The position numbers and the translations under genes are program-made. This document shows, in pieces, positions 5,482 to 64,000 of a stretch of 64,000 nt of DNA. This stretch comes from a virus. The notes under the pieces were generated by a model that ran no database searches, was not told where the DNA came from, and was given only the letters and a program-made list of their open reading frames with translations. The stretch covers positions 22,108-86,107 of the IMG/VR virus record IMGVR_UViG_3300036466_000273; one strand, given 5' to 3'. Position 1 is the stretch's first letter. Each line of letters begins with the position of its first letter.

Positions 5482-5735
5482 TGGAATATTATTTGATTGG
5501 AAGTTTGTCTGTAGGAATTGTATCGTATCTTTCTATTCATAGACCGGTACTAAAGGAATTGAGAGCTTCTGGGGAGTTGGAGCGCGATGAATTTAGGAAT
5601 CCTATGCTAACAGCTATGATTCTTATAGCATTATTTACAGTTTTGGCTCCATTTATGGTATTTGCTGGTATTTTCACTAGTAATGACCAATTTAAGCAAA
5701 ACTATAAAGATAGGCTCCTAGACCAAGAAAAATAG
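5481..5735 (+). CDS. Membrane protein
   Basis: Two hydrophobic segments; lies between D2 and D3 as in T5-like phages. Confidence 0.7.
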   Translation: MEYYLIGSLSVGIVSYLSIHRPVLKELRASGELERDEFRNPMLTAMILIALFTVLAPFMVFAGIFTSNDQFKQNYKDRLLDQEK

Positions 5736-5738
5736 TTC

Positions 5739-5767
5739 TTGACAATTTTCTCAATATTCGCTATAAT
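5739..5767 (+). promoter_or_regulatory. Strong sigma70 early promoter
   Basis: TTGACA-17-TATAAT. Confidence 0.9.
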
Positions 5768-5796
5768 ATATTTATAAACAATGGGAAAGGGAGAAA

Positions 5797-5868
5797 ATGG
5801 AAGATTGGGTGAAAGAGTATTGTATGCAGGGTGTTCTTTGGACGGTACATTTTGATGAAGCAATTTAA
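5797..5868 (+). CDS. Possible 23-aa peptide
   Basis: SD GGGAG then ATG directly downstream of the promoter; MEDWVKEYCMQGVLWTVHFDEAI. Confidence 0.35.
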   Translation: MEDWVKEYCMQGVLWTVHFDEAI

Positions 5869-5907
5869 AACAGACCCTGCAACCACACTAGCGAAGAAGG
5901 AGAAAGT

Positions 5908-6255
5908 ATGAACACATTGTACAAAGTAATTGAGACTGAAGAGTATGGAACTTTTCTTACTAAAGATTCCCAGGGTAAGTTGGTTTTGGAACTGAAAGGT
6001 TCTAACAAAGTAGCGTCTTTTTCAAGCGATGAGCTTGAGGAAGTAATACCTTATACTATTGATATTCGATTTAAGACTGATGGGGGTATCTATACTTTTA
6101 CCAGTGAAAAGGGCACTCTTGAGTTGGATGACCTAGTAGTATACGAAGGCCCATATGGGCGCGACATCGCGCAGGTCACGGGCGTAGATACTAAGAATAA
6201 AAAATCTAATAAGCCTTTTAAGGGATGGAAGTTGCAAACTCAACGAATCGCATAA
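5908..6255 (+). CDS. Conserved phage hypothetical protein
   Basis: SD AAGGAG; 115-aa ORF. Confidence 0.75.
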   Translation: MNTLYKVIETEEYGTFLTKDSQGKLVLELKGSNKVASFSSDELEEVIPYTIDIRFKTDGGIYTFTSEKGTLELDDLVVYEGPYGRDIAQVTGVDTKNKKSNKPFKGWKLQTQRIA

Positions 6256-6265
6256 AAAATAGTTC

Positions 6266-6294
6266 TTGACAAAAAGCTCGATTTTCGGTATAAT
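6266..6294 (+). promoter_or_regulatory. sigma70 promoter (D3 and tRNA cluster)
   Basis: TTGACA-17-TATAAT. Confidence 0.9.
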
Positions 6295-6327
6295 ATATTT
6301 ATAAACAATGGCAGAAGGAGCACTTTC

Positions 6328-6810
6328 ATGGGTGATAGATTTTATGGACAACAATTAAAGGCTACCGGAGATTGCCCAGGTGCTTCAAAATCACAAAAAC
6401 GAAAGGGAAGAAAAATGGCGTGGACTGACGAGAAAAAAGCTGAAGCAATCAAACTGTACGAAGATGCTGAACCTACTCCTGAAAATTCAATGGAAATTGT
6501 TAAAGAAGTAGCAGACCAGCTCGACGAAACTCCTAACGGAGTACGAATGATTCTCAGCAAAGCTGGAGTATACGTAAAGAAAGCAGCTGCTGCAAAAGCA
6601 TCTGGTGGAGAATCTAAGAAAGGTGGCTCTAAGCGAGTTAGCAAAGAGGATGCTCAAAATGCACTTCGCGAAGCTATCCAAGGTCTTGGACTTGAGCCTG
6701 ATGAAGACATCATCACAAAGATGACTGGGAAAGCAGCTCAGTACATTACATCAGTAATCAAAAGTTCTCAAGGTGAAGCTGAAGAAGCTGAAGCTGAAGC
6801 TGAAGGTTAA
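6328..6810 (+). CDS. D3: T5 D3-like DNA-binding protein (alternative start 6415)
   Basis: MAWTDEKK..AI.LY...EPTPE.SMEIVKE.A...TPNGVRMIL.KAGVYVKK...K.TGKAA. Confidence 0.8.
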   Translation: MGDRFYGQQLKATGDCPGASKSQKRKGRKMAWTDEKKAEAIKLYEDAEPTPENSMEIVKEVADQLDETPNGVRMILSKAGVYVKKAAAAKASGGESKKGGSKRVSKEDAQNALREAIQGLGLEPDEDIITKMTGKAAQYITSVIKSSQGEAEEAEAEAEG

Positions 6811-8701: not shown

Positions 8702-9637
8702 ATGAAGGAATTTCTTGACAAAGCATCTACGGCTTACTATGAAGGGAGCCCTATTATATCAGATGAAGAATTTGATAGGCTTTCTAGAGCATGTAACTAC
8801 CGAAGTGTAGGCTATTCAGTAGAAGGTGGTGTGGAACTCCCATACCGCCTCTACTCCCTTGAAACAATTTTTGAGGGAGAGTCTTATCCGATTGATATTA
8901 GTAGTAAATCTACGATAAAATCACCTAAATTGGATGGATTAGCAATAGCTCTAATATATGTACATGGTAATCTACTATCAATAATCACTAGAGGTGATTG
9001 TAAAGTTGGTAAAGATGTTAGCAGGCATATTCCTTCATTCCCTGTACCCAAAAGTATTAAAACTACGGAAGAGGTAGTACAGATTAATGGAGAGTTAGTC
9101 GCTCCCAAAGATATCCCCAGAGCACGTAATTATGCTTCTGGAGCAGTAGGGCTAAAAGATACTAAGGAATTTGCCACTAGAGACTTAACTTTTGTAGCTT
9201 ATGGAATAATTCCATACCCAACTGATAACTTTTCTACCGATATGGAACTACTCAGAAGCCGAGGCTTCAAAACAGTTCTAGATGCGGAAGGTTTGAATAA
9301 ATTTCCTACTGATGGGATTGTTTATCGCCTTAATAGTAATAAAAAGTATCTTGATGCTGGATTTACGGCGAGAGAGCCAAAAGGAGCTTTTGCTCTAAAA
9401 ACTCTTAAAACTGGAATAACTACTACCTTAAAAGATGTTGTATGGCAGGTAGGGAAATCAGGTATAGTAAGTCCAGTAGCAATTCTAGAGCCTATTGAAA
9501 TTGACGGAGCAACAATTTCTAGAGCTACACTTCATAATATAAAATATATAGATGCTCTAGGCTTAGAAATTGGTTGTGATGTAGAAGTAATACGTTCAGG
9601 AGACATTATTCCACGTATTGTACGAAGGGTTGATTAA
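8702..9637 (+). CDS. ligA: NAD+-dependent DNA ligase subunit A (adenylation + OB domains)
   Basis: SPKLDG, DGIV, WQVGKSG, RATLHN, RSGDIIP. Confidence 0.95.
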   Translation: MKEFLDKASTAYYEGSPIISDEEFDRLSRACNYRSVGYSVEGGVELPYRLYSLETIFEGESYPIDISSKSTIKSPKLDGLAIALIYVHGNLLSIITRGDCKVGKDVSRHIPSFPVPKSIKTTEEVVQINGELVAPKDIPRARNYASGAVGLKDTKEFATRDLTFVAYGIIPYPTDNFSTDMELLRSRGFKTVLDAEGLNKFPTDGIVYRLNSNKKYLDAGFTAREPKGAFALKTLKTGITTTLKDVVWQVGKSGIVSPVAILEPIEIDGATISRATLHNIKYIDALGLEIGCDVEVIRSGDIIPRIVRRVD

Positions 9638-9656
9638 ACCTATCAAAAAATTATAC

Positions 9657-9685
9657 TTGACTTTTTCCTCGAATATTAGTATAAT
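9657..9685 (+). promoter_or_regulatory. sigma70 promoter between the ligase subunit genes
   Basis: TTGACT-17-TATAAT. Confidence 0.8.
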
Positions 9686-9709
9686 ATAAAAATAATGAAA
9701 GTTGAGGCT

Positions 9710-10468
9710 ATGAAGGAAATTATTCCACCTACAAATTGCCCCGAGTGTAATAGCAACCTACTATGGGTTAATGACCAGTTATATTGTAAAAATTCAAGTT
9801 GTCCGGCTATAACACTGAAAGCCTTGCAACATTTTACTAAAACTGCGAAAATAAAGGGATTAGGAGAAGCTTCACTCCTAAAACTGGAAATTAATAGCAT
9901 AGTAGAGCTTTACCAACTTTCAAAGGAAGACTTTATTGATGCTTTAGGTGAGAAAAACGGTACTAAGTGTTACAATGAGTTGGAGAAATCGAAAAAACTC
10001 CCCCTCAACATGCTTTTACCTGCTTTCAACATCCCTTTAATTGGCAATACTGCTTCTAGTAAAATCTGTTCTAAAGTTTCACATATTGATGAAATAACAG
10101 AAAGCTCTCTTAAAGACGCAGGAATCGGACCGAAAGCATCAGCAAATTTGTTAAACTGGCTTAATAAAGTATATAAGCCAATGTATGAGAATATTCTACC
10201 GTTTGATTTTAAATCATCCAATGTCGTAGAGACTAACACTGAGGACTCCAAAGGTACAGTTTGCATAACAGGGAAGCTTAAGACTTTCAAAACCAAAGCG
10301 GAAGCAGAGCAAGCTTTACACAATAAAGGATACTCCACAGTTCCTAGGATGACAAAAGCAGTAGATATTCTAGTCAATGAGAGCGGAATAGAATCCGCAA
10401 AAACCGAGAAAGCCAGAGAATCTGGCGTAACTATTGTTACAAACCTTAACCAACTTTTAGGAGACTGA
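9710..10468 (+). CDS. ligB: NAD+-dependent DNA ligase subunit B (Zn finger, HhH, BRCT)
   Basis: PTNCPEC...C.N..C, IKGLG, CITGKL; split ligase as in T5. Confidence 0.93.
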   Translation: MKEIIPPTNCPECNSNLLWVNDQLYCKNSSCPAITLKALQHFTKTAKIKGLGEASLLKLEINSIVELYQLSKEDFIDALGEKNGTKCYNELEKSKKLPLNMLLPAFNIPLIGNTASSKICSKVSHIDEITESSLKDAGIGPKASANLLNWLNKVYKPMYENILPFDFKSSNVVETNTEDSKGTVCITGKLKTFKTKAEAEQALHNKGYSTVPRMTKAVDILVNESGIESAKTEKARESGVTIVTNLNQLLGD

Positions 10469-28783: not shown

Positions 28784-29800
28784 TTACATTCTGTTGCCTA
28801 AGAGTTTTATCTCATAGTCGGTAAGAGCAGATGAGTAAAGTGCGAAAGCTCTAAATACTCCATTAAAGAAGTTAGATAATACCCCATCAATATAGCCAGC
28901 TCCTAACTTTAAAGAGCCATTAGCTGAAGACAATTCAGAGTTATATACACCTATATCATTAGCAATCTGTCGTCCATAAGATAGTATTTGATGGTTGGTT
29001 CCTGTATACCGCATAGCAATCATAAAAGGGAACCCTCGGCCTACATTAGCTACCGTGGCGGGGTTTTCCATAATATTAAATGATATACTACCAGAGCCAT
29101 CTTCAATCTGTAGATCTAATAGAGGCGAAGTACTAGTTTCGGAATCTGCATCCATACCTGCGATAGCTCTTATTGAAGAAACATCAAAAACCGAGCCAGA
29201 AAAAAGCATTGTCCATGCTGGGGAGGGTAAGGATATGACTGGGGTGTCTATATAGTCATCAACCCCATCAAATTTTATCCCGCATAGAGTAGGAATAGCA
29301 CCGTAAATAGTGCCGTCATTTACTCCAGTAGAGTCCACTACAGTAGTACCATTTATACCCTGTATAAAATCATACTCTATAACTAAACTATCAAGACTCG
29401 GGGATACAAAACCTCCCAAATTACCAACCCATACATTATTATTTAGGGTATTATCGATACAAACCCACTCTTCTCCTGTAGTGGTATTTAATTCCTTAGC
29501 TCCAATAGAGGGAGGATTATAGTCAATTGTTGGGTCAATACTCTGCTGCACAGGAAATCTGAAGTCATTGCCTTCCGCCACTGTCTCAGCATCCGAACCG
29601 AAAGGTTTGTTGAAGGCAGAAGCTTTCTCAAACGCTGGCTCCGCATTTATAGTAGCAGGGGTTATGTTATGCGGATTGGATGCCTCTTTATGGTCTTGAA
29701 CCTCAGTGTTAATATTTATGAAATTATTATCTACTTCTGTATTTGTTAATGGAGCACCCTTAGCAGTAGTGCCTGTCTCTCTAGTAATTATAGTAGCCAT
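28784..29800 (-). CDS. Tail fibre/receptor-binding protein with LamG/ConA-like domain
   Basis: KGAPLTN.EVDNNF anchor; NPH.IT motif; FDGVDDYI...F.G....Y..ALT..EI. Confidence 0.8.
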   Translation of the reverse strand: MATIITRETGTTAKGAPLTNTEVDNNFININTEVQDHKEASNPHNITPATINAEPAFEKASAFNKPFGSDAETVAEGNDFRFPVQQSIDPTIDYNPPSIGAKELNTTTGEEWVCIDNTLNNNVWVGNLGGFVSPSLDSLVIEYDFIQGINGTTVVDSTGVNDGTIYGAIPTLCGIKFDGVDDYIDTPVISLPSPAWTMLFSGSVFDVSSIRAIAGMDADSETSTSPLLDLQIEDGSGSISFNIMENPATVANVGRGFPFMIAMRYTGTNHQILSYGRQIANDIGVYNSELSSANGSLKLGAGYIDGVLSNFFNGVFRAFALYSSALTDYEIKLLGNRM

Positions 29801-29809
29801 GCTTTCTCC

Positions 29810-30127
29810 TTATGAAATATCCAATACACGTTCTGTATAGTCATTAGTCTCAAAGTACGTATAAGTATCTGTATACCAAGTTAATATAATAAAAACTTCC
29901 GAACCAAACGAACTAATATTGTTTGAAACTGCTTCAATAGTATAATAATTACTAAAGTCTCCAATACTAACATCTGTATCTTCGAAGCTGAAGGGGGCTT
30001 CTACTATAGTGGCAACAGGAGTACCTGGAGCGCTAGTATCAATACTATCACTCGATTTATATATATTGTATTCTGCCCCTCCTAAATTTGTATCCTCAAA
30101 ATTTATAGTTATCTTTGGTGTAGGCAT
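29810..30127 (-). CDS. Fn3-like virion protein
   Basis: YNIYKS...FEDTDV...YY.IEAV. Confidence 0.6.
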   Translation of the reverse strand: MPTPKITINFEDTNLGGAEYNIYKSSDSIDTSAPGTPVATIVEAPFSFEDTDVSIGDFSNYYTIEAVSNNISSFGSEVFIILTWYTDTYTYFETNDYTERVLDIS

Positions 30128-30129
30128 AA

Positions 30130-32553
30130 TTACTCCGTATATGAGATTGTTACGTTGCCGGCTGGATTAATAGGTCTGTAGAACAAAATTGAAGGAGTTT
30201 GCAAATTCTTAACTCCCGACCTATCTGCCTCAATAGTAAATTTAAAATAGCCCGCAGTTGTATAACCAGATACCAGCGCTTCCGTGACCTCATATGAAGT
30301 ACCTGTAGTCGTGCCAGAATCTACGGTTCCCAACAGTGTATCATTAGCATCATAAGCTTGTAAAGTATAGTTATATACTACTCCTGCTTCTAAATCCGTA
30401 GAATCTTCATCCCATGTTAGGGGGCGCTCTATCTCAGTTAATCTATTTCTATGTGACCAAGTTACATTAATAGGCCAACTAAAAAATCCAGCTAGATCAT
30501 CTAACATACCAGCTACTCTGAGATTAGCTGGGCGCAGAGGTTTATAATGCCTAGCAGAGGTTACTAAAGTCTGTTCTGGGGCATCTTCTGGCTCTAAAGT
30601 ATCTGCAATAGCTATAGTACCTATTTTTAGGTACGCAGTACTTCCTACTGAGAAAGCTCTATTATACACACCCAACCCATTTTTCCCAAATAGTATTACT
30701 ACAGTGTCTTTGGGATGATTTTTTGGGACAGTATCAAATAGTCCTCGTTCTACAACGATCGAAGAGCTTAATACTGACTTTAATAGTACTATCTCTGAGC
30801 CTCCTATCAAGGCATATGTGTCAGGTACAATACTATTGGGCTGATTTAACCAAGTTATATCCATATTAGAGGTAGACTTATAGACATCAAAATTTAACTT
30901 ACATCTAAAACTTTGAGAAGCATATACTGAATCAGAATAACTGCCTTGAGGATTTTTGAATACTGGATCTATTGAAATCGTATCCTGTGTAGAGGGGACT
31001 CCTGCACACATTACGTAACTTTGAGTGGGAGTAACACTATCAGAAACTGGTGTGCCTAATCTACTACCTATAATAAACTTAGGCATATCTTCTAGTATAT
31101 GAACGCTACAAGGAGCGGCATCTTGAGAAGGAGGCTGAAATATTGCCTGCCCAGTCTGAGAATACACAGCAGAAGAGTTAGAAAATACATCTTCTATACA
31201 CTCTAATCTCAGTTTGGAGTCGGATAAATCTCCATATTTAATAGAAACGACCCTAAGCACTATTTGATCAATACCATATCTAGGCCATGACATTAATATT
31301 GGGTCTCCAATAGATACCCTCATGCCGTCTAGGTTAGTTTCTAAAGTGGCTGTTGCTAAGTTAGTAGATAAGGACTGTAAATCTCTGCTTAATAATTTTT
31401 CAGCGGTATCCTTATGTGCTACAAGTGGGTATTCTAAGGTTTTAGAGATAGTGCGTCCAGCTTGTGCAACTAGTGCAATGTCAGAACGTGTTAAAGAAGA
31501 CTTTTCTCCAGTGTCACTATCCCAGAATTTAATTGTAAGAGTGTTAGGAGACTCCTCATATGTATTACGCTTAAAAGATTTTACTTCAATTATGTTATCT
31601 TCGTCAAAGACAGGTAGGTTGTCTATATCAAAGTCATCACGTATCAGTTTTAGTCTCAACTTACCGGTATGAATATCAGAAAATAGAAAGGCATCTATAT
31701 GATTAAGTAGATCTTTTATAAACTCTCCTATTTCTGCCTCTTGAGTCCACAGTGCACACATCCCAAAATTTTCAGAAGCTAATACTGAGTTTGCTGAATT
31801 AAAAGAAGCTACGTCTATATCATCTAATGTATACCCCAGCCCCCACTTTTCATTTAATATTATCTCTGCCAATAAGTTGGCTGGATTCATTGCTTGGATA
31901 CCATTGGGGAGGGTTATTACAGGGTTATTAAGGCCAGACCTATAATATATATTTCTGCCCCAAGCATGCCAAGGTCTTATCATATCACTATCCCCTACCC
32001 AAACATGTTCTAGTACTAGGGAAGCGACTCCTCTAAATGCAGGAATTCCGCCAGACCATGTGGTTGGAAGTTTACTAGCTAGGTAAGCATTAGGCATTTG
32101 ATTGGGGTTTCCATCATGGAATCTAAAAGTGCCCCCAATACCCCCGCCGGCATAAAAACCCCCAAAAAATGAGCTTCGCCACACATGTGCTGAAGTATCT
32201 GTGCCTATCCCATCCCCATAAGGGTCTCCCCAAAGAGCTCTACCATCTACCTCAATAGCTAGAAGTCTTTGCATATCATGACAGAGCGCTAAATGCATCC
32301 CTAGATAGTAGTTATAACCAACTGTTTGGTCTTCTTTCTCTTTTTCATAAACTCGTAAGTCCCCATACCACACAACATTAGGAGAGGTTACCTTTTTAGT
32401 ACCAAATAAAACAGGAATTTCTTTTCCAATTTCCGCCGTTGGTATATCTAATTGATCTAGCGATTTAGCAGCCATATGCACGCTAGCAGAAGGGGCTAGT
32501 ATTAGAGTTGCTATGACTGCTATGATTACTACTATAAGTAAGCCTAGACCCAT
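30130..32553 (-). CDS. Tail tip/central fibre protein (putative phage tail family)
   Basis: PTAEIGK.IPVLFGT...PNVVWYGD, PAFRG, NPA..L.EI....WGLG, LKLIR.D. Confidence 0.85.
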   Translation of the reverse strand: MGLGLLIVVIIAVIATLILAPSASVHMAAKSLDQLDIPTAEIGKEIPVLFGTKKVTSPNVVWYGDLRVYEKEKEDQTVGYNYYLGMHLALCHDMQRLLAIEVDGRALWGDPYGDGIGTDTSAHVWRSSFFGGFYAGGGIGGTFRFHDGNPNQMPNAYLASKLPTTWSGGIPAFRGVASLVLEHVWVGDSDMIRPWHAWGRNIYYRSGLNNPVITLPNGIQAMNPANLLAEIILNEKWGLGYTLDDIDVASFNSANSVLASENFGMCALWTQEAEIGEFIKDLLNHIDAFLFSDIHTGKLRLKLIRDDFDIDNLPVFDEDNIIEVKSFKRNTYEESPNTLTIKFWDSDTGEKSSLTRSDIALVAQAGRTISKTLEYPLVAHKDTAEKLLSRDLQSLSTNLATATLETNLDGMRVSIGDPILMSWPRYGIDQIVLRVVSIKYGDLSDSKLRLECIEDVFSNSSAVYSQTGQAIFQPPSQDAAPCSVHILEDMPKFIIGSRLGTPVSDSVTPTQSYVMCAGVPSTQDTISIDPVFKNPQGSYSDSVYASQSFRCKLNFDVYKSTSNMDITWLNQPNSIVPDTYALIGGSEIVLLKSVLSSSIVVERGLFDTVPKNHPKDTVVILFGKNGLGVYNRAFSVGSTAYLKIGTIAIADTLEPEDAPEQTLVTSARHYKPLRPANLRVAGMLDDLAGFFSWPINVTWSHRNRLTEIERPLTWDEDSTDLEAGVVYNYTLQAYDANDTLLGTVDSGTTTGTSYEVTEALVSGYTTAGYFKFTIEADRSGVKNLQTPSILFYRPINPAGNVTISYTE

Positions 32554-32556
32554 AAG

Positions 32557-33372
32557 TTATCTCCTAATTGATGAGAGGAAAGGGTTTTTATTCGGAACCC
32601 AGTTAAATGCTAAATAGTTAAGTATATTATTAAACCTGCCCGAGCATGTTTGAGGTGTTTTATCACACCCCGGATATAAAAATATTGTATCCCCAAAACT
32701 AACATCATACAAGGGTCTTGCTAGGTATAAAGTATTTCCTACATGGTTCGTTATAAACGAAGTTTTGTACTGCAATGGAATTTCTGCAATTCCCCCAGTA
32801 AAATATCCGTCAGTATAAGTATTTTGTACTTCAATATGAGTATTACTTATTACTGAAGCTATGATTTCTTCTTGCTCAAACTCTACTTTACTAACTCCGC
32901 AACCTTGCCCATATACTAGGTGTTGGCAAACAAATTCATATCTAATACCTAAGCCTGACATAGAGATAGATGATAAAATAGGTTCACAATGGATATCCGC
33001 TACAGTATTTTTAGGTTCTACAGATACAATTCTTCCTTTCCACATAACTAAAGCTTCCGAGATATTATTAGTTCTATGTAGCTTCTTTATAGTAAGGGTG
33101 GTGCGCATTTCAGGGGTAAAATGTAGTAATTCATTAACTAATGTGTTAGATATTGGAAGTGTAATAGTTATAGGTACCTTAAGTACATCATCAGTAGTAT
33201 CAATCTTACTTCTGGAAATAGGCTCGGCTTCATAAAAATCATTACTCCCTACGGGGGTAAATCCTTCTCTAGCTGAAGTTATCTTATATCTCCATAGGTC
33301 TGAGCGACTAAACTCATATAGTTCTACCGGTTCTCCACTATGTACACTATACTCATCAGATGCAAAGCTCAT
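32557..33372 (-). CDS. BR0599-family tail protein
   Basis: G.PVELYEF, C.H.VY..GC, YPGCDKT..TC..RFNN..N...F..VP.KNPF. Confidence 0.88.
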   Translation of the reverse strand: MSFASDEYSVHSGEPVELYEFSRSDLWRYKITSAREGFTPVGSNDFYEAEPISRSKIDTTDDVLKVPITITLPISNTLVNELLHFTPEMRTTLTIKKLHRTNNISEALVMWKGRIVSVEPKNTVADIHCEPILSSISMSGLGIRYEFVCQHLVYGQGCGVSKVEFEQEEIIASVISNTHIEVQNTYTDGYFTGGIAEIPLQYKTSFITNHVGNTLYLARPLYDVSFGDTIFLYPGCDKTPQTCSGRFNNILNYLAFNWVPNKNPFLSSIRR

Positions 33373-56522: not shown

Positions 56523-57830
56523 TCAGAACACACCTACGCCCGAAGTGGCGTAACTGTAGAGTGCGTATCTAATGGCATCCGCCATATGCGAAGCATCATT
56601 ATGTACAGGTTTTTCTTTAGTCAATCCAGGCCTAGCATCCCAACCATACTGGTCAATTGATTCTAAGCTATGTAGACAATCTGCATCAACTAACAAGCGA
56701 CCAGTGTCAATAATACTACCAACATGAGCAATACCATCTAATATCGATTTCTTTGCATTAGTACAGCTAATATCATAAAGTTGCGCAAGGTCAAACTTCG
56801 TTTGAGCTGCCGCAGAGTCTATGTAGACAAAATCAACATCCCATTTATCTAGTATTTCTCTTATACATTTTGCATGATCTGCAGTCGTTTTCTCAGCTGC
56901 TTTATACTCGTCTATTAGATAGTAAAGGTCAGCAGTATCATCATAAGCAAATACAGCTAAAGCTGTGGAATCCTTAAATCCAACATCTAGCCCAGCGATC
57001 TTATCCATACCACTAAAATCTACATCAAGCGAAGAACAGTTAACAATATTATCATCTGATAATTGCCATATCTGGCCTTCAAAAGTAGTAAAACTAGCAA
57101 GGTACTCTTGCTCGAATTCCTGTTTAGACATTGTAGCGCGTGCTTCTGCGATATCTTCCTCTGATACTCGCGGATTTTCGCGATAATCAGAATGGATGGA
57201 TACCCAAGCAGGGTATTCAGAACTAAAACCACGTTGGAAGAACTTACTAAACCAGTTATTTTTACCACGAGGAGTGGAAATAAATATAGCTTTTGAATTC
57301 TCTTTATCTAGTGTCGGGCGCAACGCGATATTGAAGGCATCTTCGCCAGCATTAGTTAAGGCAGCCTCATCAAACAGTATCAAATCATATGATCTACCAA
57401 CACAACTATCAACCTGTGAAATAGAACCCATTCTAACAGAAGAACCATTCGATAAAGTAATAACCCTATCCTTAACGTTATTCTTAGCTACCTCCAAATC
57501 AAATTGATTTATCAACGATCGTTGTAATTCAAAAGAAATCTGAGATAAGCTATAGTTAGGGGACATTATTAGCACAGATGCATTTGGTATTAATGCTACA
57601 CACTGAGCTATAACATTCGCTATAAATGTCTTACCTGTTCGACGAGATAATGCTGCACAAACAAAACGATACTTAGGGTTGTTAATTGCATTAATTGTAG
57701 CAATCTGGGGAGGAATAGGATCAATCCCCATTAATTCTAAATATCCATCGATAGGAACTCGCATATAGCTACGAGAGCCATAATCAATTATCCTATCTAT
57801 TATTACATCTTCTCTACTTACTGAAAGCAT
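56523..57830 (-). CDS. terL: Terminase large subunit (T5-like)
   Basis: SRRTGKT, VGRSYDLI.FDEAA, FISTPRG, F.QEY.A.F, GLDVG, SH.ADA.RY. Confidence 0.96.
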   Translation of the reverse strand: MLSVSREDVIIDRIIDYGSRSYMRVPIDGYLELMGIDPIPPQIATINAINNPKYRFVCAALSRRTGKTFIANVIAQCVALIPNASVLIMSPNYSLSQISFELQRSLINQFDLEVAKNNVKDRVITLSNGSSVRMGSISQVDSCVGRSYDLILFDEAALTNAGEDAFNIALRPTLDKENSKAIFISTPRGKNNWFSKFFQRGFSSEYPAWVSIHSDYRENPRVSEEDIAEARATMSKQEFEQEYLASFTTFEGQIWQLSDDNIVNCSSLDVDFSGMDKIAGLDVGFKDSTALAVFAYDDTADLYYLIDEYKAAEKTTADHAKCIREILDKWDVDFVYIDSAAAQTKFDLAQLYDISCTNAKKSILDGIAHVGSIIDTGRLLVDADCLHSLESIDQYGWDARPGLTKEKPVHNDASHMADAIRYALYSYATSGVGVF

Positions 57831-58222: not shown

Positions 58223-58656
58223 TCTTTATTTCCTCCTAATAACTTATCCATCAACTTTCCGTAATTACCGCCATTAATCTGCACGTTGGTTTGATTTGCG
58301 ATGGATTGACTCTGTGCCTTCTGTTGAGCTGCTATTTCGTCCATTCTCATTTTATGGGCTAGAGCGAGGATATCCATCAAATCTTTCGAAGAGTAGACTT
58401 CACTTTCGCGAGCTTCTTCTAATTTAGAATCGATGATTTCATCTATTAAACCGCCCAGCTTAAATCTATTGCGATACCCACGATCCATATAAACGGAATT
58501 AATATAGTTCTTTACCTCAGCTTTGTCTAGTAGCGCAGCAGCCTTCTCTACTGACACACCCATCTCATAAGCTGCGGCATCAATTGAACCTAGGCTTAGA
58601 TAGGCATTTGCCAGCTCCAGTCCCTCCGGGGATATTTTAAGTGCATTAGTGTCCAT
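58219..58656 (-). CDS. terS: Terminase small subunit (T5-like)
   Basis: ISPEGL..AN.YL, EVK.YI..V..D.G.RNR, KLEE..E....S.KD, QTNVQIN..NY..LM. Confidence 0.9.
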   Translation of the reverse strand: MDTNALKISPEGLELANAYLSLGSIDAAAYEMGVSVEKAAALLDKAEVKNYINSVYMDRGYRNRFKLGGLIDEIIDSKLEEARESEVYSSKDLMDILALAHKMRMDEIAAQQKAQSQSIANQTNVQINGGNYGKLMDKLLGGNKE

Positions 58657-58663
58657 ATGTTAT

Positions 58664-58692
58664 ATGTTACTATCATGGGGGCGATGTGTCAA
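58664..58692 (-). promoter_or_regulatory. sigma70-type promoter giving a probably leaderless terS mRNA
   Basis: TTGACA-17-TAACAT; ATG lies 7 nt downstream, no SD. Confidence 0.6.
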
Positions 58693-58777
58693 GGATAAAA
58701 AATTTAATAGGTATTTGAAATTTTTGAAAATTTTTTCGAAGCGTGGGTAGATTCGCCGAATTAGTAGTCTCTTAATC

Positions 58778-58922
58778 AACATTAGCCAATTGCCGCGAAG
58801 TTAGTCGTATACCAATTACTGCCAAACAATAGCCATATGCCGCGAAGTTAGTTATATACCAATTACTTCCAAACATTAGCCATATGATAATTACTGCCAA
58901 ACATTAGCCAATTGCCGCGAAG
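58778..58922. repeat. Shuffled direct repeats
   Basis: GCCGCGAAG x3, AATTACTKCCAAACAWTAGCCA x3, AACAWTAGCCA x4. Confidence 0.85.
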
Positions 58923-59106
58923 CGGCGTATCTGCTGCATTTTGGCGTCTAAATGGACTTGAAAATACCTTGTGGGCCGCGTGTGGGGGAGTGTACGTTAA
59001 AAATTTTAATGAAAGTCTACTAACCGCCCTACATTAGTCTGTTTTAATCTTGGGTTGGTCAACATTAGAATCCTCTAAGGTTTGTTACCAACATTAAAAA
59101 TTTTTA

Positions 59107-59139
59107 TTAAGCCCGCTCCAGGATTAGAGCGGGCTTAAC
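59107..59139 (-). terminator. Hairpin closing the leftward pre-early unit
   Basis: TTAAGCCCGCTC-N7-GAGCGGGCTTAA. Confidence 0.7.
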
Positions 59140-59152
59140 TTTGGTTGCTAGG

Positions 59153-59371
59153 TTAGGATTGCTCCACGGTTTCGGTTATTGCCTTTTTGTTGAATATCCT
59201 ACGCCATACATACGACCGAATCAAACTAACAACGGTATAAATGGCAGTTATAGTTATTGGGGATAAAACATTCAAAACGGGATAAAGCGCATTAGTTACA
59301 ATTAAACTAACGATAAACCCGCTTGCGGTGTTTAATGATACCTCTTGAATACTTTTTGATTTGCTTTGCAT
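59153..59371 (-). CDS. Small two-TM phage membrane protein
   Basis: MQSK..S..E...NTA.GF.VS...YT.VS..RSY..RR.FN motif. Confidence 0.75.
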   Translation of the reverse strand: MQSKSKSIQEVSLNTASGFIVSLIVTNALYPVLNVLSPITITAIYTVVSLIRSYVWRRIFNKKAITETVEQS

Positions 59372-59439
59372 GGTTTTAACCTTCCCGCCTTGCCCTTGCG
59401 TGGTAAACTCACACTACAAGGGCAAGGCTTAAAATTTGT

Positions 59440-60144
59440 TTACACGTTGAAATTATCGCGAACCTGCGCTAAACGCCAATTATATGGAGGAACTTCTTGC
59501 AATTGCTTAACGCTTTTACGTTTAAGCAGGTGTTGCAATATGGGTAACTCATGCAATACCACGTCCTCATAAGCGGTATGAGGCTCCACATCATATTGCC
59601 CTGAGATAAACGCTGAAACGGTTTCAGCGTTTACTTTATACGTCATATTCCCGCGCTCGGTAGGCGCGTTAAATAGGTGATTATCTAGCACAAAGCGCTT
59701 ATATGCTTTTGACTGTCCTATGGCATTAAACGCGCAATGCCATAAGCAGAATTTACGGGTAAACATGGTTAAATCAATCCCCGTTTTGCTACACTTGTCA
59801 AGGTCAAATGCCAGATTGTACGCCGTTAAAACCGGCTTAAATTGGCTATAAGCCTTTAACAGCCATGAATTTATCGCTGGCACGCTTGCCAGCATTCTCA
59901 TACCATCTGCCAGCATTTCCTTGTATTTTGTTTCCCTTTGGTCTGCGGCTTTTGCAGACCAAAGGGCATCCTCTTGTGCGTTGGAATCAAAAAATAGAGG
60001 TTCTTTACCAAATATACCAGATACCAGAACAGCGCACTGTGCGACAATATTTCCTTTTTTATCACACACTATTGCCCCAAAGTCTGCAACATTCTGCGCT
60101 TGCGTGGTCTCGGTATCAATCAATAAAAAATAGTTTTTTCTCAT
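59440..60144 (-). CDS. DEDDh 3'-5' exonuclease
   Basis: IDTET, AYN..FD, HTA.ED. Confidence 0.85.
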   Translation of the reverse strand: MRKNYFLLIDTETTQAQNVADFGAIVCDKKGNIVAQCAVLVSGIFGKEPLFFDSNAQEDALWSAKAADQRETKYKEMLADGMRMLASVPAINSWLLKAYSQFKPVLTAYNLAFDLDKCSKTGIDLTMFTRKFCLWHCAFNAIGQSKAYKRFVLDNHLFNAPTERGNMTYKVNAETVSAFISGQYDVEPHTAYEDVVLHELPILQHLLKRKSVKQLQEVPPYNWRLAQVRDNFNV

Positions 60145-60152
60145 AATAGCCC

Positions 60153-60221
60153 CTATAATAAAAACGGTAAAACATATAAGGGGCTGAAAATAGCCACTAA
60201 AATTAAAAACTCTTTAAACAT
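60153..60221 (-). CDS. Possible 22-aa hydrophobic peptide
   Basis: SD AAGGGG; MFKEFLILVAIFSPLYVLPFLL. Confidence 0.45.
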   Translation of the reverse strand: MFKEFLILVAIFSPLYVLPFLL

Positions 60222-60278
60222 AGCTTGCCCCTTTCAGAATAAGCCCGCCTGCTAACATAACAGGCGGGCGCGTTGTGG

Positions 60279-60578
60279 TTAATCCTCGAGGGAATCAACC
60301 ATCTTTTGTAAAACATCCTTGCTCGCTTTTTCAAGCCCTGCAAGGTCGCCTTCCATAAAACCTAACCCCTTTTCGATAAGGGGTACAAGGTCAGTCTTTC
60401 TCAAGACGGGTGCCCCAGACTTGCTTACCCGCTTTTTGCGCTCATACTCGATGCCATTTCGTGTAGCACTTGCCACAATAGCACGAGGTTTAACATTAAA
60501 TTTCTCGGCTATTTCCTGTGCCTTAGTCCAGTTGAGAGGGGCATTTTCCTTCATAACTTCCAGAATTTCGTTTTTCAT
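60279..60578 (-). CDS. A2-like DNA-binding protein (copy 1)
   Basis: EIAEKF...PR..V......Y......G....RK..LV..I......L.GLEK pattern resembling T5 A2; pre-early position. Confidence 0.7.
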   Translation of the reverse strand: MKNEILEVMKENAPLNWTKAQEIAEKFNVKPRAIVASATRNGIEYERKKRVSKSGAPVLRKTDLVPLIEKGLGFMEGDLAGLEKASKDVLQKMVDSLED

Positions 60579-60757
60579 GGTTTGACTCCCTTAGTCAAAG
60601 GTTAAAAGAAACTAACGTTTATTATGCCTAGCTCGCGGCATGTTTCCAGCGGGCGCCACCTCATACTATCGCGCATGATTAGGCGTTTTTCCCGTGGTGC
60701 GGGTTGCTAGGCTATTCTGTTTTCAAGGAACGTTATCGTTATGTTTAACTTGACTAC

Positions 60758-60786
60758 AGACTAACAAAACGCCTTGAACCTGTCAA
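60758..60786 (-). promoter_or_regulatory. sigma70 promoter of the leftward pre-early unit
   Basis: TTGACA-17-TAGTCT with TGn extended -10. Confidence 0.7.
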
Positions 60787-60797
60787 AAATACAAAAC

Positions 60798-61020
60798 TCA
60801 ATAATATCAGGTACTTAGAAAAACCACCCTCAATGATTTCAGGTACTTACAAGAAAAAAGCATGAAAAAATATTTTTTGCATTTTTTCTTTTATCCCGAA
60901 AAACTCAATAAAAACAGCTACTTACAAGCGACCTCCTGAGAGGCGTTCTAAGACACTTTTATCAACTAAGGTATGCAATAGTATAGGCAAAAATAAATAT
61001 TCAAGGATTCCAGGCACTTA
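60798..61020 (+). promoter_or_regulatory. Four 20-bp IHF-type boxes
   Basis: TCAA-N6-CAG-N2-ACTTA at 60798, 60830, 60905, 61001; the first contains an exact WATCARNNNNTTR. Confidence 0.7.
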
Positions 61021-61093
61021 TAAATGTTGGCACGGAAATTGTCGTGACTTACAGCTAAAAATAGAACGTTGGTATAATTTAATAAAGCGATTT

Positions 61094-61192
61094 TAACATT
61101 AGAAAATTTTTATAAGCCAGGTGTAACATTAAAATAAATTTATTTTCCTGGGCTAACATTAGAAAAATTTTTATAAGCCAGGTGTAACATTA
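61094..61192 (+). repeat. Two ~38-bp direct repeats giving four TAACATTA boxes
   Basis: TAACATTAGAAAA(A)TTTTTATAAGCCAGGTGTAACATTA x2; boxes at 61094, 61124, 61154, 61185. Confidence 0.9.
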
Positions 61193-61359
61193 GAAAAAAT
61201 TAATTAAAATCCTTTCATTTAAATCATGCGCCGCTTCATTAAAATGCGTTTATTTATTAAATTTTTCATGAACCTATTTTAATAAACAAAAGCTAATTTT
61301 GCGCCGATTACCCTAATGAGAGAATTTTAATAAATTAGCCGTTCATTAGCGTGGGCTTA

Positions 61360-61417
61360 TGGCATGAAATTTGCTATTGCTAGAATCGTGCCAGGTTGGG
61401 TTGGCATGGTATTTGCA
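61360..61417. promoter_or_regulatory. Cluster of three sigma54 -24/-12 elements
   Basis: TGGCATGAAATTTGCT (+61360), TGGCACGATTCTAGCA (-61393), TGGCATGGTATTTGCA (+61402); all GG-N10-GC. Confidence 0.7.
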
Positions 61418-61765
61418 TAAAAATAGTTTTAATAAACGGATTCTAATTCATTAAAGCACTCTAATTCATTAAAGCTTTTTAATTAGGGTCGACGCCTCCG
61501 GCGCCTAAGTGGTAAAGTGATAAAATTATAATAAGTGCCGCGCCAGTGCTAAAGTGAAGAAATTATAATGTATGCCGCAGCCCCGCGCCAGTGCAGAACC
61601 TAAGTGCAAAACATATACCTTGCGCCGAGCCCCACATTAGAAATTTTTAATGTTACCTGTCTGCGAGAACCTCCGGATTAAAATGTTTTAATTTCTTCAG
61701 ATAAGATTAAATATCTCTAATTAAGTACAACTAAGATTAAAATTCACCAAAGAAGCCGATTTTCC

Positions 61766-61794
61766 TTGACTTTTCGACTCCGCCACGGTATAAT
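61766..61794 (+). promoter_or_regulatory. sigma70 promoter
   Basis: TTGACT-17-TATAAT. Confidence 0.88.
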
Positions 61795-61827
61795 GTATTT
61801 ATAAACAATGAGGGAAGGAGAGAAATT

Positions 61828-61995
61828 ATGAAAGAATCTTACGTTGACTTTCTTATTCGTAAATTAGACGACCTTAACACTCCCCAGGACATGGCTGATT
61901 ATTACCTGGATGAAATTTTCGACCTAGCTCTAGAAACTAATGAGAAGGCTGTTAAGTGGCTATTCGGAACTTCTACCTACGTACCGAAAAGATAA
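61828..61995 (+). CDS. Small acidic protein (55 aa)
   Basis: SD AAGGAG; MKESYVDFLIRK...YVPKR. Confidence 0.7.
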   Translation: MKESYVDFLIRKLDDLNTPQDMADYYLDEIFDLALETNEKAVKWLFGTSTYVPKR

Positions 61996-62008
61996 CCGAA
62001 AAAAGTTC

Positions 62009-62037
62009 TTGACTTTTCGACTCCACCGCGGTATAAT
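62009..62037 (+). promoter_or_regulatory. sigma70 promoter
   Basis: TTGACT-17-TATAAT, identical to the 62277 copy. Confidence 0.88.
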
Positions 62038-62068
62038 ATATTTATAAACAATGAAAAAAGGAGGTTAT

Positions 62069-62263
62069 ATGACCGGATTAGATGTATTAGAATTTGCAAT
62101 GAATAATAAACTGGATGCAGAGTTAGTATTTGATACAAAGAATAACACTGTCAATTTCATTCGATTTGAAAATTTTGAGACAGATACTATTGACAAAACC
62201 AATAATGAGATAATTGAAATACTAAACGCTTTTAAAACCCTCCAAGACCACAATGTTATTTAA
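62069..62263 (+). CDS. Hypothetical protein
   Basis: SD AGGAGG before ATG 62069. Confidence 0.7.
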   Translation: MTGLDVLEFAMNNKLDAELVFDTKNNTVNFIRFENFETDTIDKTNNEIIEILNAFKTLQDHNVI

Positions 62264-62276
62264 TAGAAAAAAGTTC

Positions 62277-62305
62277 TTGACTTTTCGACTCCACCGCGGT
62301 ATAAT
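62277..62305 (+). promoter_or_regulatory. sigma70 promoter
   Basis: TTGACT-17-TATAAT. Confidence 0.88.
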
Positions 62306-62359
62306 GTATTTATAAACGATGGGAGAAGCCCACAAACCCTGAGCCAAGGAGGTTCCACT

Positions 62360-62659
62360 ATGAAAAACGAAATCATCGAAACTATGCGCGCAGAAGCCCC
62401 TCTCAACTGGAGTAAAGCCCAGGAGATTGCTGAGAAGTTTGACATTAAGCCTCGTGCTGTAGTCGCCTCTGCAACTCGAAACGGCATCGAGTACGAGAAG
62501 AAGAAGCGTGTCTCAAAGTCCGGTGCTCCGATTGTTCGCAAAACTGACCTCGTAGCTAAGCTGGAAAGTCTTACCGGCGAGAAACTGGAAGGTCTGGAGA
62601 AATCCAGCAAGGAGCCTCTGGAGACTATGCTCAACTACATCGAGTCTCTGCAGAGCTAG
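62360..62659 (+). CDS. A2-like DNA-binding protein (copy 2)
   Basis: Close paralogue of 60279..60578, same length (99 aa); SD AAGGAGG. Confidence 0.75.
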   Translation: MKNEIIETMRAEAPLNWSKAQEIAEKFDIKPRAVVASATRNGIEYEKKKRVSKSGAPIVRKTDLVAKLESLTGEKLEGLEKSSKEPLETMLNYIESLQS

Positions 62660-62743
62660 TCTCCCAGAGCTAGTTTCCCCATTTCCCCGCCGAAAGCGGG
62701 GATTTGGGGCATCTATTGAATACTAATCAGAGGGTGGGAATTT

Positions 62744-63517
62744 ATGGAAACATACCAAGCAAAATGTATGAATGAAGCACAAAAAGGAAATTCTATGACC
62801 GAACTAGAGTACTACAAAACACGTGAGAAAACGCTTGAAAAAGAACTTAACGAAGCTAATGATGAAATCAATAGACTTAATTTTCTCGTTGCTCAGGAGA
62901 GTGATAAAGCTAATTTGGATAAAGCTAATTTGGAACACAGACTTAAAAACCAATTAGCTGAAATTCTTCATCTTTCTGATATTAACCAGGAACAGCAGGA
63001 TGAAATTGATAGATTGCATGAAGAAATTCAAGAATTCTCAACACACGTAAGTTTTCTTCAAGATGCTTCTGAACGAGAATCCGATTGCTATATTCAGCAG
63101 ATTAGTTCCCTCCAAAAAGAACTTAGCGACCTCAGTAAAAACTATAATATTTTACAATCTCGATACGGTAAGCAACCCATAACCCTACAAGAAGAAGTTG
63201 AAAAGTTGAAAACGGAATGCGAAAAACTGCGCAAAGGCTACAAAGAGATGCGAAGTCTGCAATTTGATACAGCTTGTGGCTATGAGAAGCAAAAGTTGAA
63301 AATTGAAGAACTAACTCGCCTGCTTGATGAAAAAGACGATATTATTTTTGATAAAACTCAAGAGTGCCGGCTTCTTCGACTTGCCGCCGAACATGCGGCA
63401 GCAAAAACTGCGGAATATGAAGCGCATGGCTTGAGTGGTGAATCTAAGGATAAAATCATTAAAAGTCTGCAGAAGATGTTCGACGAAATGAAAGAAATTG
63501 AAAAGGAGATTCTCTAA
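62744..63517 (+). CDS. Long coiled-coil protein
   Basis: E/K/L-rich heptads; internal DKANL duplication. Confidence 0.75.
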   Translation: METYQAKCMNEAQKGNSMTELEYYKTREKTLEKELNEANDEINRLNFLVAQESDKANLDKANLEHRLKNQLAEILHLSDINQEQQDEIDRLHEEIQEFSTHVSFLQDASERESDCYIQQISSLQKELSDLSKNYNILQSRYGKQPITLQEEVEKLKTECEKLRKGYKEMRSLQFDTACGYEKQKLKIEELTRLLDEKDDIIFDKTQECRLLRLAAEHAAAKTAEYEAHGLSGESKDKIIKSLQKMFDEMKEIEKEIL

Positions 63518-63732
63518 TGGCTACTTTCTGGTATGATATTTGTAATGACTACACCCTGCAAATTCGCATGGACCAAAATGACCCAGCTGACCTCCATGAG
63601 TACACTACTGAAGAGCGTGCAACTCTTGAGGATGACTACTCCCTAACTATATTTGTTGATGATGATGAGGAAGAAGTGTATCTGCTCTCAAGTTCCCCCG
63701 ACCTGCATGGAGATAATTTGTTTAGCGTGTAG
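63517..63732 (+). CDS. Acidic hypothetical protein
   Basis: TAATG overlap, SD AAGGAG. Confidence 0.7.
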   Translation: MATFWYDICNDYTLQIRMDQNDPADLHEYTTEERATLEDDYSLTIFVDDDEEEVYLLSSSPDLHGDNLFSV

Positions 63733-64000
63733 ATGTTAGTAAAATTTAGTACGAATGTTAGTAAAATTTAGTACGAATGTTAGTAAAATTTAGTACGAAT
63801 GTTAATAAAATTTAGTACGAATGTTAGTAAAATTTAGTACGAATGTTAGTAAAATTTAGTACGAGAGGAGGGGAAATTTAGTACGAATGTTAGTAAAATT
63901 TAGTACGAATGTTAGTAAAATTTAGTACGAATGTTAGTAAAATTTAGTACGAATGTTAGTAAAATTTAGTACGAATGTTAGTAAAATTTAGTACGAATGT
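63733..64000. repeat. 22-bp tandem repeat, at least 12 units, running off the window
   Basis: Unit GAATGTTAGTAAAATTTAGTAC; one point variant and one purine-substituted unit. Confidence 0.97.

Follow-up and report, generated by a model that had tools for sequence, protein, structure and literature searches.

Packed sigma-54-type sites in the control region of a T5-related phage: a putative docking module for a host sigma factor

Polymerase carrying sigma-54 binds stably to its sites but does not initiate transcription without an activator ATPase, and to our knowledge sigma-54 is the sole bacterial sigma factor that binds DNA stably and yet remains silent until such an ATPase acts. Its role in phage infection is, as far as we know, almost unstudied, the sole precedent found in the literature being the Pseudomonas phage YuA. 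This lytic phage is reported to rely on host sigma-54 (cited in PMC5053324 and PMC10914365). The sigma-54 closed complex is described as stable (PMC3844500), and some promoters are reported to be occupied by sigma-54 without core polymerase (PMC2715252). Decoy sites that titrate transcription factors have been described for response regulators and in synthetic arrays (PMC8599769, PMC7826281), and the injection stop signal (iss) regions of phage T5 are described as having paired DnaA boxes in inverted repeats (Davison preprint, 10.1101/866236). The present work concerns a cluster of three sigma-54 (RpoN)-type sites, and perhaps a fourth, in a stretch of virus DNA 64,000 nucleotides long (the window), which comprises bases 22108-86107 of the linear IMG/VR virus record IMGVR_UViG_3300036466_000273 (86,107 bp, estimated to be 77% complete). 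These packed, alternating sites appear to form a selected module, which may serve to hold host sigma-54 on the phage DNA.

Four motifs had been singled out in an original prediction made from the letters alone, and all four are found where it placed them, on the strands it gave:

61360-61375, plus strand: sigma-54-type site 1, TGGCATGAAATTTGCT, an exact match to TGGCAYG-N4-TTGCW
61378-61393, minus strand: sigma-54-type site 2, TGGCACGATTCTAGCA, with one mismatch, TAGCA for TTGCA (11/12)
61402-61417, plus strand: sigma-54-type site 3, TGGCATGGTATTTGCA, an exact match to TGGCAYG-N4-TTGCW
61028-61043, plus strand: weaker fourth site, TGGCACGGAAATTGTC, 10/12, with TTGT for TTGC and so GT where GC is expected
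60579-61827: the gene-free, repeat-rich divergent control region that contains the sites, 1249 bases with no open reading frame (ORF) of 60 or more amino acids (aa)

The motifs show the strict spacing and polarity of sigma-54 sites, as had been claimed for them; in particular, the GG and GC doublets of sites 1 to 3 lie exactly 10 bp apart within the consensus. Sites 1 and 2 stand head to head, 18 bp from start to start, and sites 2 and 3 back to back at 24 bp. The membership of the 61028 site in the module is less certain. Since the flanks of the three sites share nothing, the repeated unit is the 16-bp motif itself.

Sites 1 to 3 are the only matches to TGGCAYG-N4-TTGCW with at most one mismatch in the 64 kb, where 0.68 would be expected. 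Shuffled versions of the window contained three or more matches anywhere in 4 of 100 cases, and three matches inside 100 bp were not seen in any of 200 shuffles of the whole window. When the whole record was scanned for GG-N10-GC together with at least 9 of the 12 consensus letters, 13 places qualified, with scores of 11 for the three sites, 10 for one further place and 9 for the remainder. The top three matches of the 86-kb record therefore all lie inside 58 bp. Dinucleotide-preserving shuffles of the control region, 3000 in number, gave no match in 2949 cases, one match in 51 and two or more in none. The comparison with shuffles that had been proposed as a check thus comes out in favor of the cluster, which exceeds chance and has no equal-scoring place elsewhere in the record.

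The consensus was checked against 29 intergenic Salmonella sites supported by chromatin immunoprecipitation (ChIP), among them those of pspA, pspG, glnA and rpoH (PMC3844500). By a hand count of that table, 6 of the 29 read exactly TGGCAYG-N4-TTGCW and 15 of the 29 score at least 11 of 12, so by this count the window sites (two exact, one at 11) are as good as validated ones. The ChIP-supported sites of pspA and pspG read TTGT, as does the 61028 site. Host sigma-54 quite probably reads the window sites.

A variant strain, recovered in an independent subsurface study, shows which letters are kept. Its 266-nt contig spans 61189-61454 with six differences, of which four are located in sites 1 and 3, on the plus strand (61365 T>C, 61367 A>G, 61408 G>A and 61410 T>A). 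Site 1 of the variant reads TGGCACGG..., with T>C at position 6 and a change at the first spacer base, and its site 3 has G>A at position 7 and a different second spacer base; at positions 6 and 7 the old and the new letter are both common in such sites. TGGCA and TTGC are intact, site 2 is identical, and the four changes lie only at degenerate or spacer positions. With four changes placed at random over the 48 site positions, the chance that all spare the 27 core letters is about 3 in 100, a figure that concerns one lineage and was calculated post hoc. In this contig the sites change faster than their flanks. The altered sites 1 and 3 share eight letters before the final base, which could reflect gene conversion or tuning.

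The window cluster belongs to a wider class of viral arrays. A census was taken of viral contigs that carry two same-strand sites 10-40 bp apart, with the N4 spacer; such pairs occur in at least 120 viral stretches, and those of an N5 version of the pattern in 2. The 120 loci listed fall into 73 DNA-similarity groups with 31-65% G+C, and two unrelated terminase types are found among them. The array regions, 33,086 bp in all, contain TGGCA-N6-TTGC 495 times and its three permuted arrangements 0, 0 and 1 times. On these numbers the idea that the motif is a generic T(G/T)GCA pentamer repeat was rejected. Letters that the search did not force are also constrained, with T before TGG in 69%, R at the first spacer base in 81% and W after TTGC in 91%; all four window sites have R at the first spacer base. 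The strictness of the motif across many lineages, together with the two terminase types, favors a conserved host reader over many unrelated phage proteins. The small terminase was considered as the reader and rejected, since the arrays accompany two unrelated terminase types.

Both the placement and the spacing of these arrays are regular. The array lies wholly outside ORFs of at least 80 aa in 62 of the 120 loci listed, as against 82% ORF cover overall, and in all 46 loci with a T4-type terminase it lies 0.7-2.5 kb upstream of the terminase gene, with sites directed away from that gene 148 times and toward it 67 times. The window, with three sites in 58 bp of a 1.25-kb gene-free region upstream of packaging genes, fits this class; its cluster is 3.5 kb upstream of the start of the large terminase gene. 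With each DNA-similarity group counted once, neighbors in the order plus then minus are 17-21 bp apart in 24 of the 30 groups that have such a pair (mode 18, in 14 groups), and neighbors in the order minus then plus are 22-26 bp apart in 16 of 28 (mode 24, in 6 groups). Consequently, the window spacings of 18 and 24 are the commonest values over independent viral lineages. The exact head-to-head pair was found in 92 viral stretches versus 4 times in 185,579 bacterial and archaeal genomes (one per species). All 4 of the latter pairs are on contigs of metagenome-assembled genomes, 7.7-22.8 kb long, and one of these contigs is identical to a viral contig; the other three share no protein with the phage ORF set.

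Two of the arrays deserve separate mention. The largest one met, at locus L073 (IMGVR_UViG_3300049489_000321, a contig of 147,530 bp), has 43 sites scoring at least 10 in a 6.5-kb locus, with 23 of them in about 800 bp at 5660-6445, in long same-strand runs of both orientations. At locus L033 (8126-8665) nine alternating sites arise from a tandem unit of about 47 bp, between divergent genes and beside a good sigma-70 promoter; this locus belongs to an abundant, uncultured group of 40 loci with an SU10-type portal, a T4-type terminase and an M15 endolysin. L033 and the window share a plan in which a sigma-70 promoter accompanies sigma-54-type sites.

The window phage is, to judge from its sequence, a distant relative of T5. 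The large terminase encoded at 56523-57830 on the minus strand shares 48% identity with its counterparts in Vibrio crassostreae phages of the T5 family, Demerecviridae, and the record runs from replication-type genes on the plus strand to structural and packaging genes on the minus strand. The best-matching public run for the record is a shale-gas metagenome. Whole genomes of T5-family phages were scanned for the site pattern, with the pattern read backwards as the control:

Vibrio phage 70E37.1: 8 matches, 7 of them within 29054-33017 (control 2)
Vibrio phage D254: 10 matches, 9 of them within 105195-109604 (control 1)
Vibrio phage VPG01: 5 matches, 4 of them within 2406-2926 (control 0)
Vibrio phage Chester: 5 matches, with two exact sites per terminal repeat (control 2)
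Vibrio phage Chloris: 5 matches, with two exact sites per terminal repeat (control 4)

Exact sites thus lie in pre-early or terminal-repeat DNA in all five cultured Vibrio T5-like phages scanned, and T5, Serratia Kamaji, Providencia PR1, Klebsiella K7_rec21, EPS7, Proteus Stubb and Shigella SSP1 have no matches above the control. Conservation in related phages, which had been put forward as a check, therefore holds for the five Vibrio phages and for none of the seven of enterobacterial type. In D254 one cluster (109402 minus, 109425 plus, 109589 plus) lies just upstream of genes annotated as the DNA-binding (A2) and DNA transfer (A1) proteins, and the corresponding divergent gap of 70E37.1, 1.4 kb long, contains three sites. 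The spacings of plus then minus pairs in T5-like relatives are 17 in 70E37.1, 18 in D254, 17 at locus L159 and 19, 18 and 18 at loci L036, L095 and L088, and the minus then plus spacing in D254 is 23.

Seven IMG/VR relatives of the window lineage, with terminases 50-64% identical, are among the pattern matches (L036, L058, L061, L088, L095, L121 and L125). The presence of sites in these seven follows from the design of the search, and position alone is informative: in five of them (L036, L058, L061, L095 and L121) the clusters lie beside A2-like genes and upstream of the small terminase. L095 and L036 have two or three A2-like genes around the clusters. An unbiased set was provided by the best 80 of at least 597 terminase relatives, of which three loci reach an A2-like gene. 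A cluster is present in one of them, L159, about 150 bp upstream of the A2-like gene, and L157 and L181 have the A2-like gene and no cluster. This argues that the element is recurrent but dispensable within the lineage.

The genes and promoters that surround the window cluster are as follows:

60279-60578, minus strand: A2-like helix-turn-helix (HTH) gene of 99 aa, the first leftward of the control region, with a paralogue and a weak similarity to T5 A2
62360-62659, plus strand: second A2-like gene of 99 aa, within the rightward unit, a paralogue of 60279-60578
61828 (start), plus strand: gene of 55 aa, the first of the rightward unit
61766-61794, plus strand: sigma-70-type promoter TTGACT-17-TATAAT (11/12), between the sigma-54-type sites and the gene at 61828

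The two A2-like paralogues, which are 66% identical and on opposite strands, bracket the control region. Their resemblance to T5 A2 is weak (28% over 76 aa, E 0.032 in a pairwise comparison), Pfam and PHROG scans give them a weak generic HTH match only, and a direct search of viral contigs with the 99-aa protein returned only two matches of 16 residues. The gene order and this faint A2 likeness place the cluster in the probable counterpart of the divergent pre-early promoter region of T5. PHROG and Pfam scans of the flanking genes recognize a small terminase and a single family without known function, and otherwise give weak hints of HTH domains. Direct search found no relative of the flanking 234-aa and 257-aa proteins in viral contigs; the 234-aa protein was considered as T5 dmp and rejected, the sequences being not alike, and no homologue of A1 or dmp was found in the 86-kb record with the T5, D254 and 70E37.1 proteins as queries. 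An ORF at the start of the record (about 130-400), judged by eye, looks like a third A2-like HTH protein.

The control region holds 21 families of direct repeats and 61 inverted pairs. An Rfam scan of 58500-64000 gave nothing above noise, no intrinsic terminator-like site was found in 60400-62100, and a DNA similarity search of the 1.25-kb region against 50,697 phage records gave no match, near or distant. In the variant strain, 43 bases of the block of AACATTAG repeats, with a period of 30 bp, are replaced at 61134-61178 by 12 other letters, so the copy number of the AACATTAG box varies between strains. The absence of a close ORF behind the sites, asserted in the original prediction, is confirmed, since no ORF of at least 30 aa starts between 61017 and 61828 and the next co-directional starts are at 61828 (plus) and 60578 (minus). 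The further assertion that every recognizable promoter in the window is of the sigma-70 type was checked for 60400-62100, where there are two 11/12 sigma-70 matches, at 61766 and 62009. Weak sigma-70-like hexamers are present in Vibrio phages 70E37.1 and D254, and the order there is the same as in the window: sigma-54 sites, hexamers, gene.

The two sigma-70 matches are copies of a promoter-plus-leader cassette of about 45-56 bp, which is present at least 9 times in the record at 84-91% identity (window 61766-61794 and 62009-62037; record 9020, 12034, 13146, 16600, 27866, 28393, 84115 and 84383). In this it is similar to the strong early promoters that T5-type phages have in repeated copies. 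Contig depth in the run from which the record probably derives is 57.9 as far as 62027 and about 112-125 beyond 62008 and 62276, a break that coincides with the second copy of the TTGACT...TATAAT cassette. A collapsed terminal repeat may begin at this break (62008-62300), or the break may reflect no more than a shared repeat; it is at most a weak hint of where a terminal repeat starts. At the end of the record, 63733-64000 of the window is a tandem array of a 22-bp unit in 12 copies, with at most 4 substitutions; in one copy a purine run takes the place of the first half. The other end of the record does not continue this array, so the assembly probably broke inside it.

From the sites, their statistics, conservation pattern, geometry and distribution we infer that sigma-54 would be the binder and that binding, rather than firing, would be the function. 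The explanation favored here, at a little short of an even chance, is that the cluster is a selected docking or holding module for host sigma-54 rather than a group of ordinary promoters. Sites 1 to 3, and perhaps the 61028 site, would be selected sites for host sigma-54, either free or as the RNA polymerase holoenzyme. The window cluster would be the smallest version of a phage-specific element, in which sigma-54 sites of alternating orientation are packed nearly end to end in gene-free control DNA ahead of pre-early and packaging genes, and the module would hold the host factor on phage DNA as a dock, as a sink or as a barrier between two divergent sigma-70 units. Under the standard -12 numbering a sigma-54 start is expected about 12 nt beyond the GC. 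The start predicted for site 1 is at about 61386, inside site 2, and that for site 2 at about 61367, inside site 1. Holding is preferred to firing because sigma-54 is stable but silent without its ATPase and because the start of each of these neighbors falls inside its partner. This mutual overlap of starts, together with the phage-specific head-to-head layout, fits the decoy or clamp that had been suggested for the cluster. A possible but less probable alternative is that the sites function as enhancer-dependent sigma-54 promoters. A host activator ATPase would fire them and so add a layer that depends on host state to the sigma-70 promoters; the rightward unit would be transcribed from sites 1 and 3, and the A2-like gene on the left from site 2. 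Their sequence quality equals that of validated promoters by the hand count (PMC3844500), the plus/minus/plus arrangement directs sites at both gene units, a dependence on host sigma-54 is reported for YuA (PMC5053324, PMC10914365), and, with no known activator box identified near the sites, there are repeat families at enhancer-like distances, 100-290 bp to either side. However, transcripts from sites 1 and 2 would each begin within the other site. The nearest genes in the same direction lie 411 and 800 bp away, behind sigma-70 promoters; this would give leaders of 400 and 790 nt that cross a strong sigma-70 promoter, and on sequence alone no start appears to serve a gene. Neither an activator gene (PF00158) nor a sigma-54 DNA-binding domain (PF04552) was found in the 86-kb record, 77% complete. 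(It should be noted that a host-encoded activator could serve in place of a phage one.) Some NtrC-family activators bind short palindromes similar to the middle of a head-to-head pair, a likeness that is given no weight here. Nor is there any sign of a promoter-type orientation rule in the viral arrays: for 725 exact sites in 206 loci a co-directional ORF starts 5-400 bp downstream in 419 cases and in 408 in the mirror control, and of 96 same-direction clusters 24 fit forward only and 18 in the mirror only. Finally, head-to-head pairs are almost absent from bacterial genomes, the home of real promoters, and YuA itself has no cluster. Several considerations nevertheless weigh against a docking module. 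The orientation tests are crude, with naive ORF calls, partly related loci and a second locus set that is symmetric by construction. Co-oriented sites lie 130-450 bp upstream of the A2-like gene in L159, L121, L058 and L036, and in D254 and 70E37.1 two plus-strand sites aim at the A2/A1 operon, as promoters would. It is an assumption that the host possesses sigma-54, two sigma-54 molecules or holoenzymes would have to find room 18-24 bp apart, three sites make a small sink, and the cluster is patchy among terminase relatives. A T5-like phage infects Salmonella less well when rpoN is lost, an indirect effect that runs through RpoS and glutamine (PMC8744999), so that draining sigma-54 is not obviously useful to a phage.

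The remaining explanations are weaker. That the sites are operators for a phage-encoded DNA-binding protein such as the A2-like HTH proteins, with the likeness to sigma-54 sites due to coincidence or mimicry, is distinctly improbable. A2-like genes are indeed neighbors of the clusters, in the window as well as in L036, L058, L061, L095, L121 and L159, A2 is annotated as a DNA-binding protein in the T5 record, and the head-to-head pair is a 34-bp near-palindrome of the type preferred by dimeric regulators. But the identical bipartite motif, with its spacing and polarity, is present in 73 DNA-similarity groups, and permuted arrangements of its pentamers are absent (0, 0 and 1 against 495), whereas A2-like homologues lie within 3 kb of the arrays in just four of the 120 loci listed (L036, L058, L061 and L095). 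T5 has A2 yet no such sites, L157 and L181 have the gene without the cluster, and the proteins themselves give only the weak generic HTH match. The original prediction had also proposed that bound sigma-54 polymerase clamps the DNA as the stop signal of the two-step injection of T5-type phages, and this is very unlikely. The region is non-coding, repeat-rich and, by its weak A2 likeness, in pre-early-type DNA, and some Vibrio phage sites (1199/1216 in 70E37.1, 2406-2926 in VPG01) are at the far end of a small-gene operon, the position of the T5 iss. Other observations count against the link: T5 and the six other relatives of enterobacterial type have no sites above control, arrays are common in phages that are not T5-like, no A1 homologue is in the record, and a protein inside the cell binds DNA only after its entry. 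The window cluster is not at an iss-like distal position either. In the T5 record the iss is at 9140-10149, after T5.011-T5.017; the window cluster is instead between divergent units, beside A2-like genes. Moreover, the DnaA boxes of T5 iss regions are missing from this part of the window, which has 10 matches to TTWTNCACA and none in 58-64 kb. By gene order, the 22-bp array at 63733-64000 is a better candidate for a T5-type distal repeat than the sigma-54 cluster. There remains chance, or a neutral leftover of local duplication. Although the control region is full of repeats, this explanation is scarcely credible, given that none of the 3000 shuffles produced two matches, that the flanks of the three sites are unrelated, that the core letters are kept in the variant strain and that the geometry is common to independent lineages.

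A docking module could have a further consequence. Near-consensus sites on multiplying phage genomes, spaced too tightly to work as ordinary promoters, might soak up the small pool of sigma-54 and so act as a DNA-based anti-sigma device, which is a rather improbable extension of the idea. If it were true, the host sigma-54 regulon (stress, repair, motility and signalling) would be silenced without a phage protein, and the three-site module of this T5-like phage would be a minimal member of the class. More generally, a module that is common to many unrelated phages and nearly absent from bacterial chromosomes would suggest that phages exploit or disable a host transcription factor by a route not yet described. 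A T5-type phage has the identical 18/24-bp geometry found in unrelated lineages. The element is, in addition, separated from the long-standing problem of the T5 injection stop, being a poor candidate for that signal. Since cultured Vibrio T5-like phages carry sites in matching DNA, the question is open to ordinary phage-host experiments.

The literature holds no close counterpart that we could find. No description of sigma-54 site clusters in phages was found in the full text covered; as the original prediction had stated, no such use in T5-like phages was found in the searchable literature; and literature searches found no natural DNA sink for a sigma factor. What is new here is the lineage-corrected spacing, the permutation control, the strain-level pattern of substitutions and the patchiness among terminase relatives.

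Comparison with the described systems shows what is shared and what is not. The window sites have the same bipartite signal as the -24/-12 promoters of RpoN, with GG and GC at 10 bp, together with the extended letters of the Salmonella table (PMC3844500). Unlike bacterial RpoN promoters, they overlap the starts of their partners, alternate in orientation, have no gene directly behind them and no activator gene, and belong to a lytic phage. The likeness to YuA is that of a lytic phage tied to host sigma-54, but YuA is described, in the works that cite it, with single promoters that fire (PMC5053324, PMC10914365), unlike the window cluster. Its genome has no cluster, and with up to 2 mismatches allowed it gives 8 scattered matches as against 12 for a control pattern. 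The untranslated repeats of T5 and the window region are both gene-free, repeat-rich, pre-early DNA with proposed binding of a host protein (10.1101/866236). Unlike the T5 iss, the window region would involve a different host protein, and T5 is without sigma-54 sites. With decoy systems, finally, the window cluster would share the concept itself, in which clustered, high-affinity sites without output lower the free pool of a factor (PMC8599769, PMC7826281).

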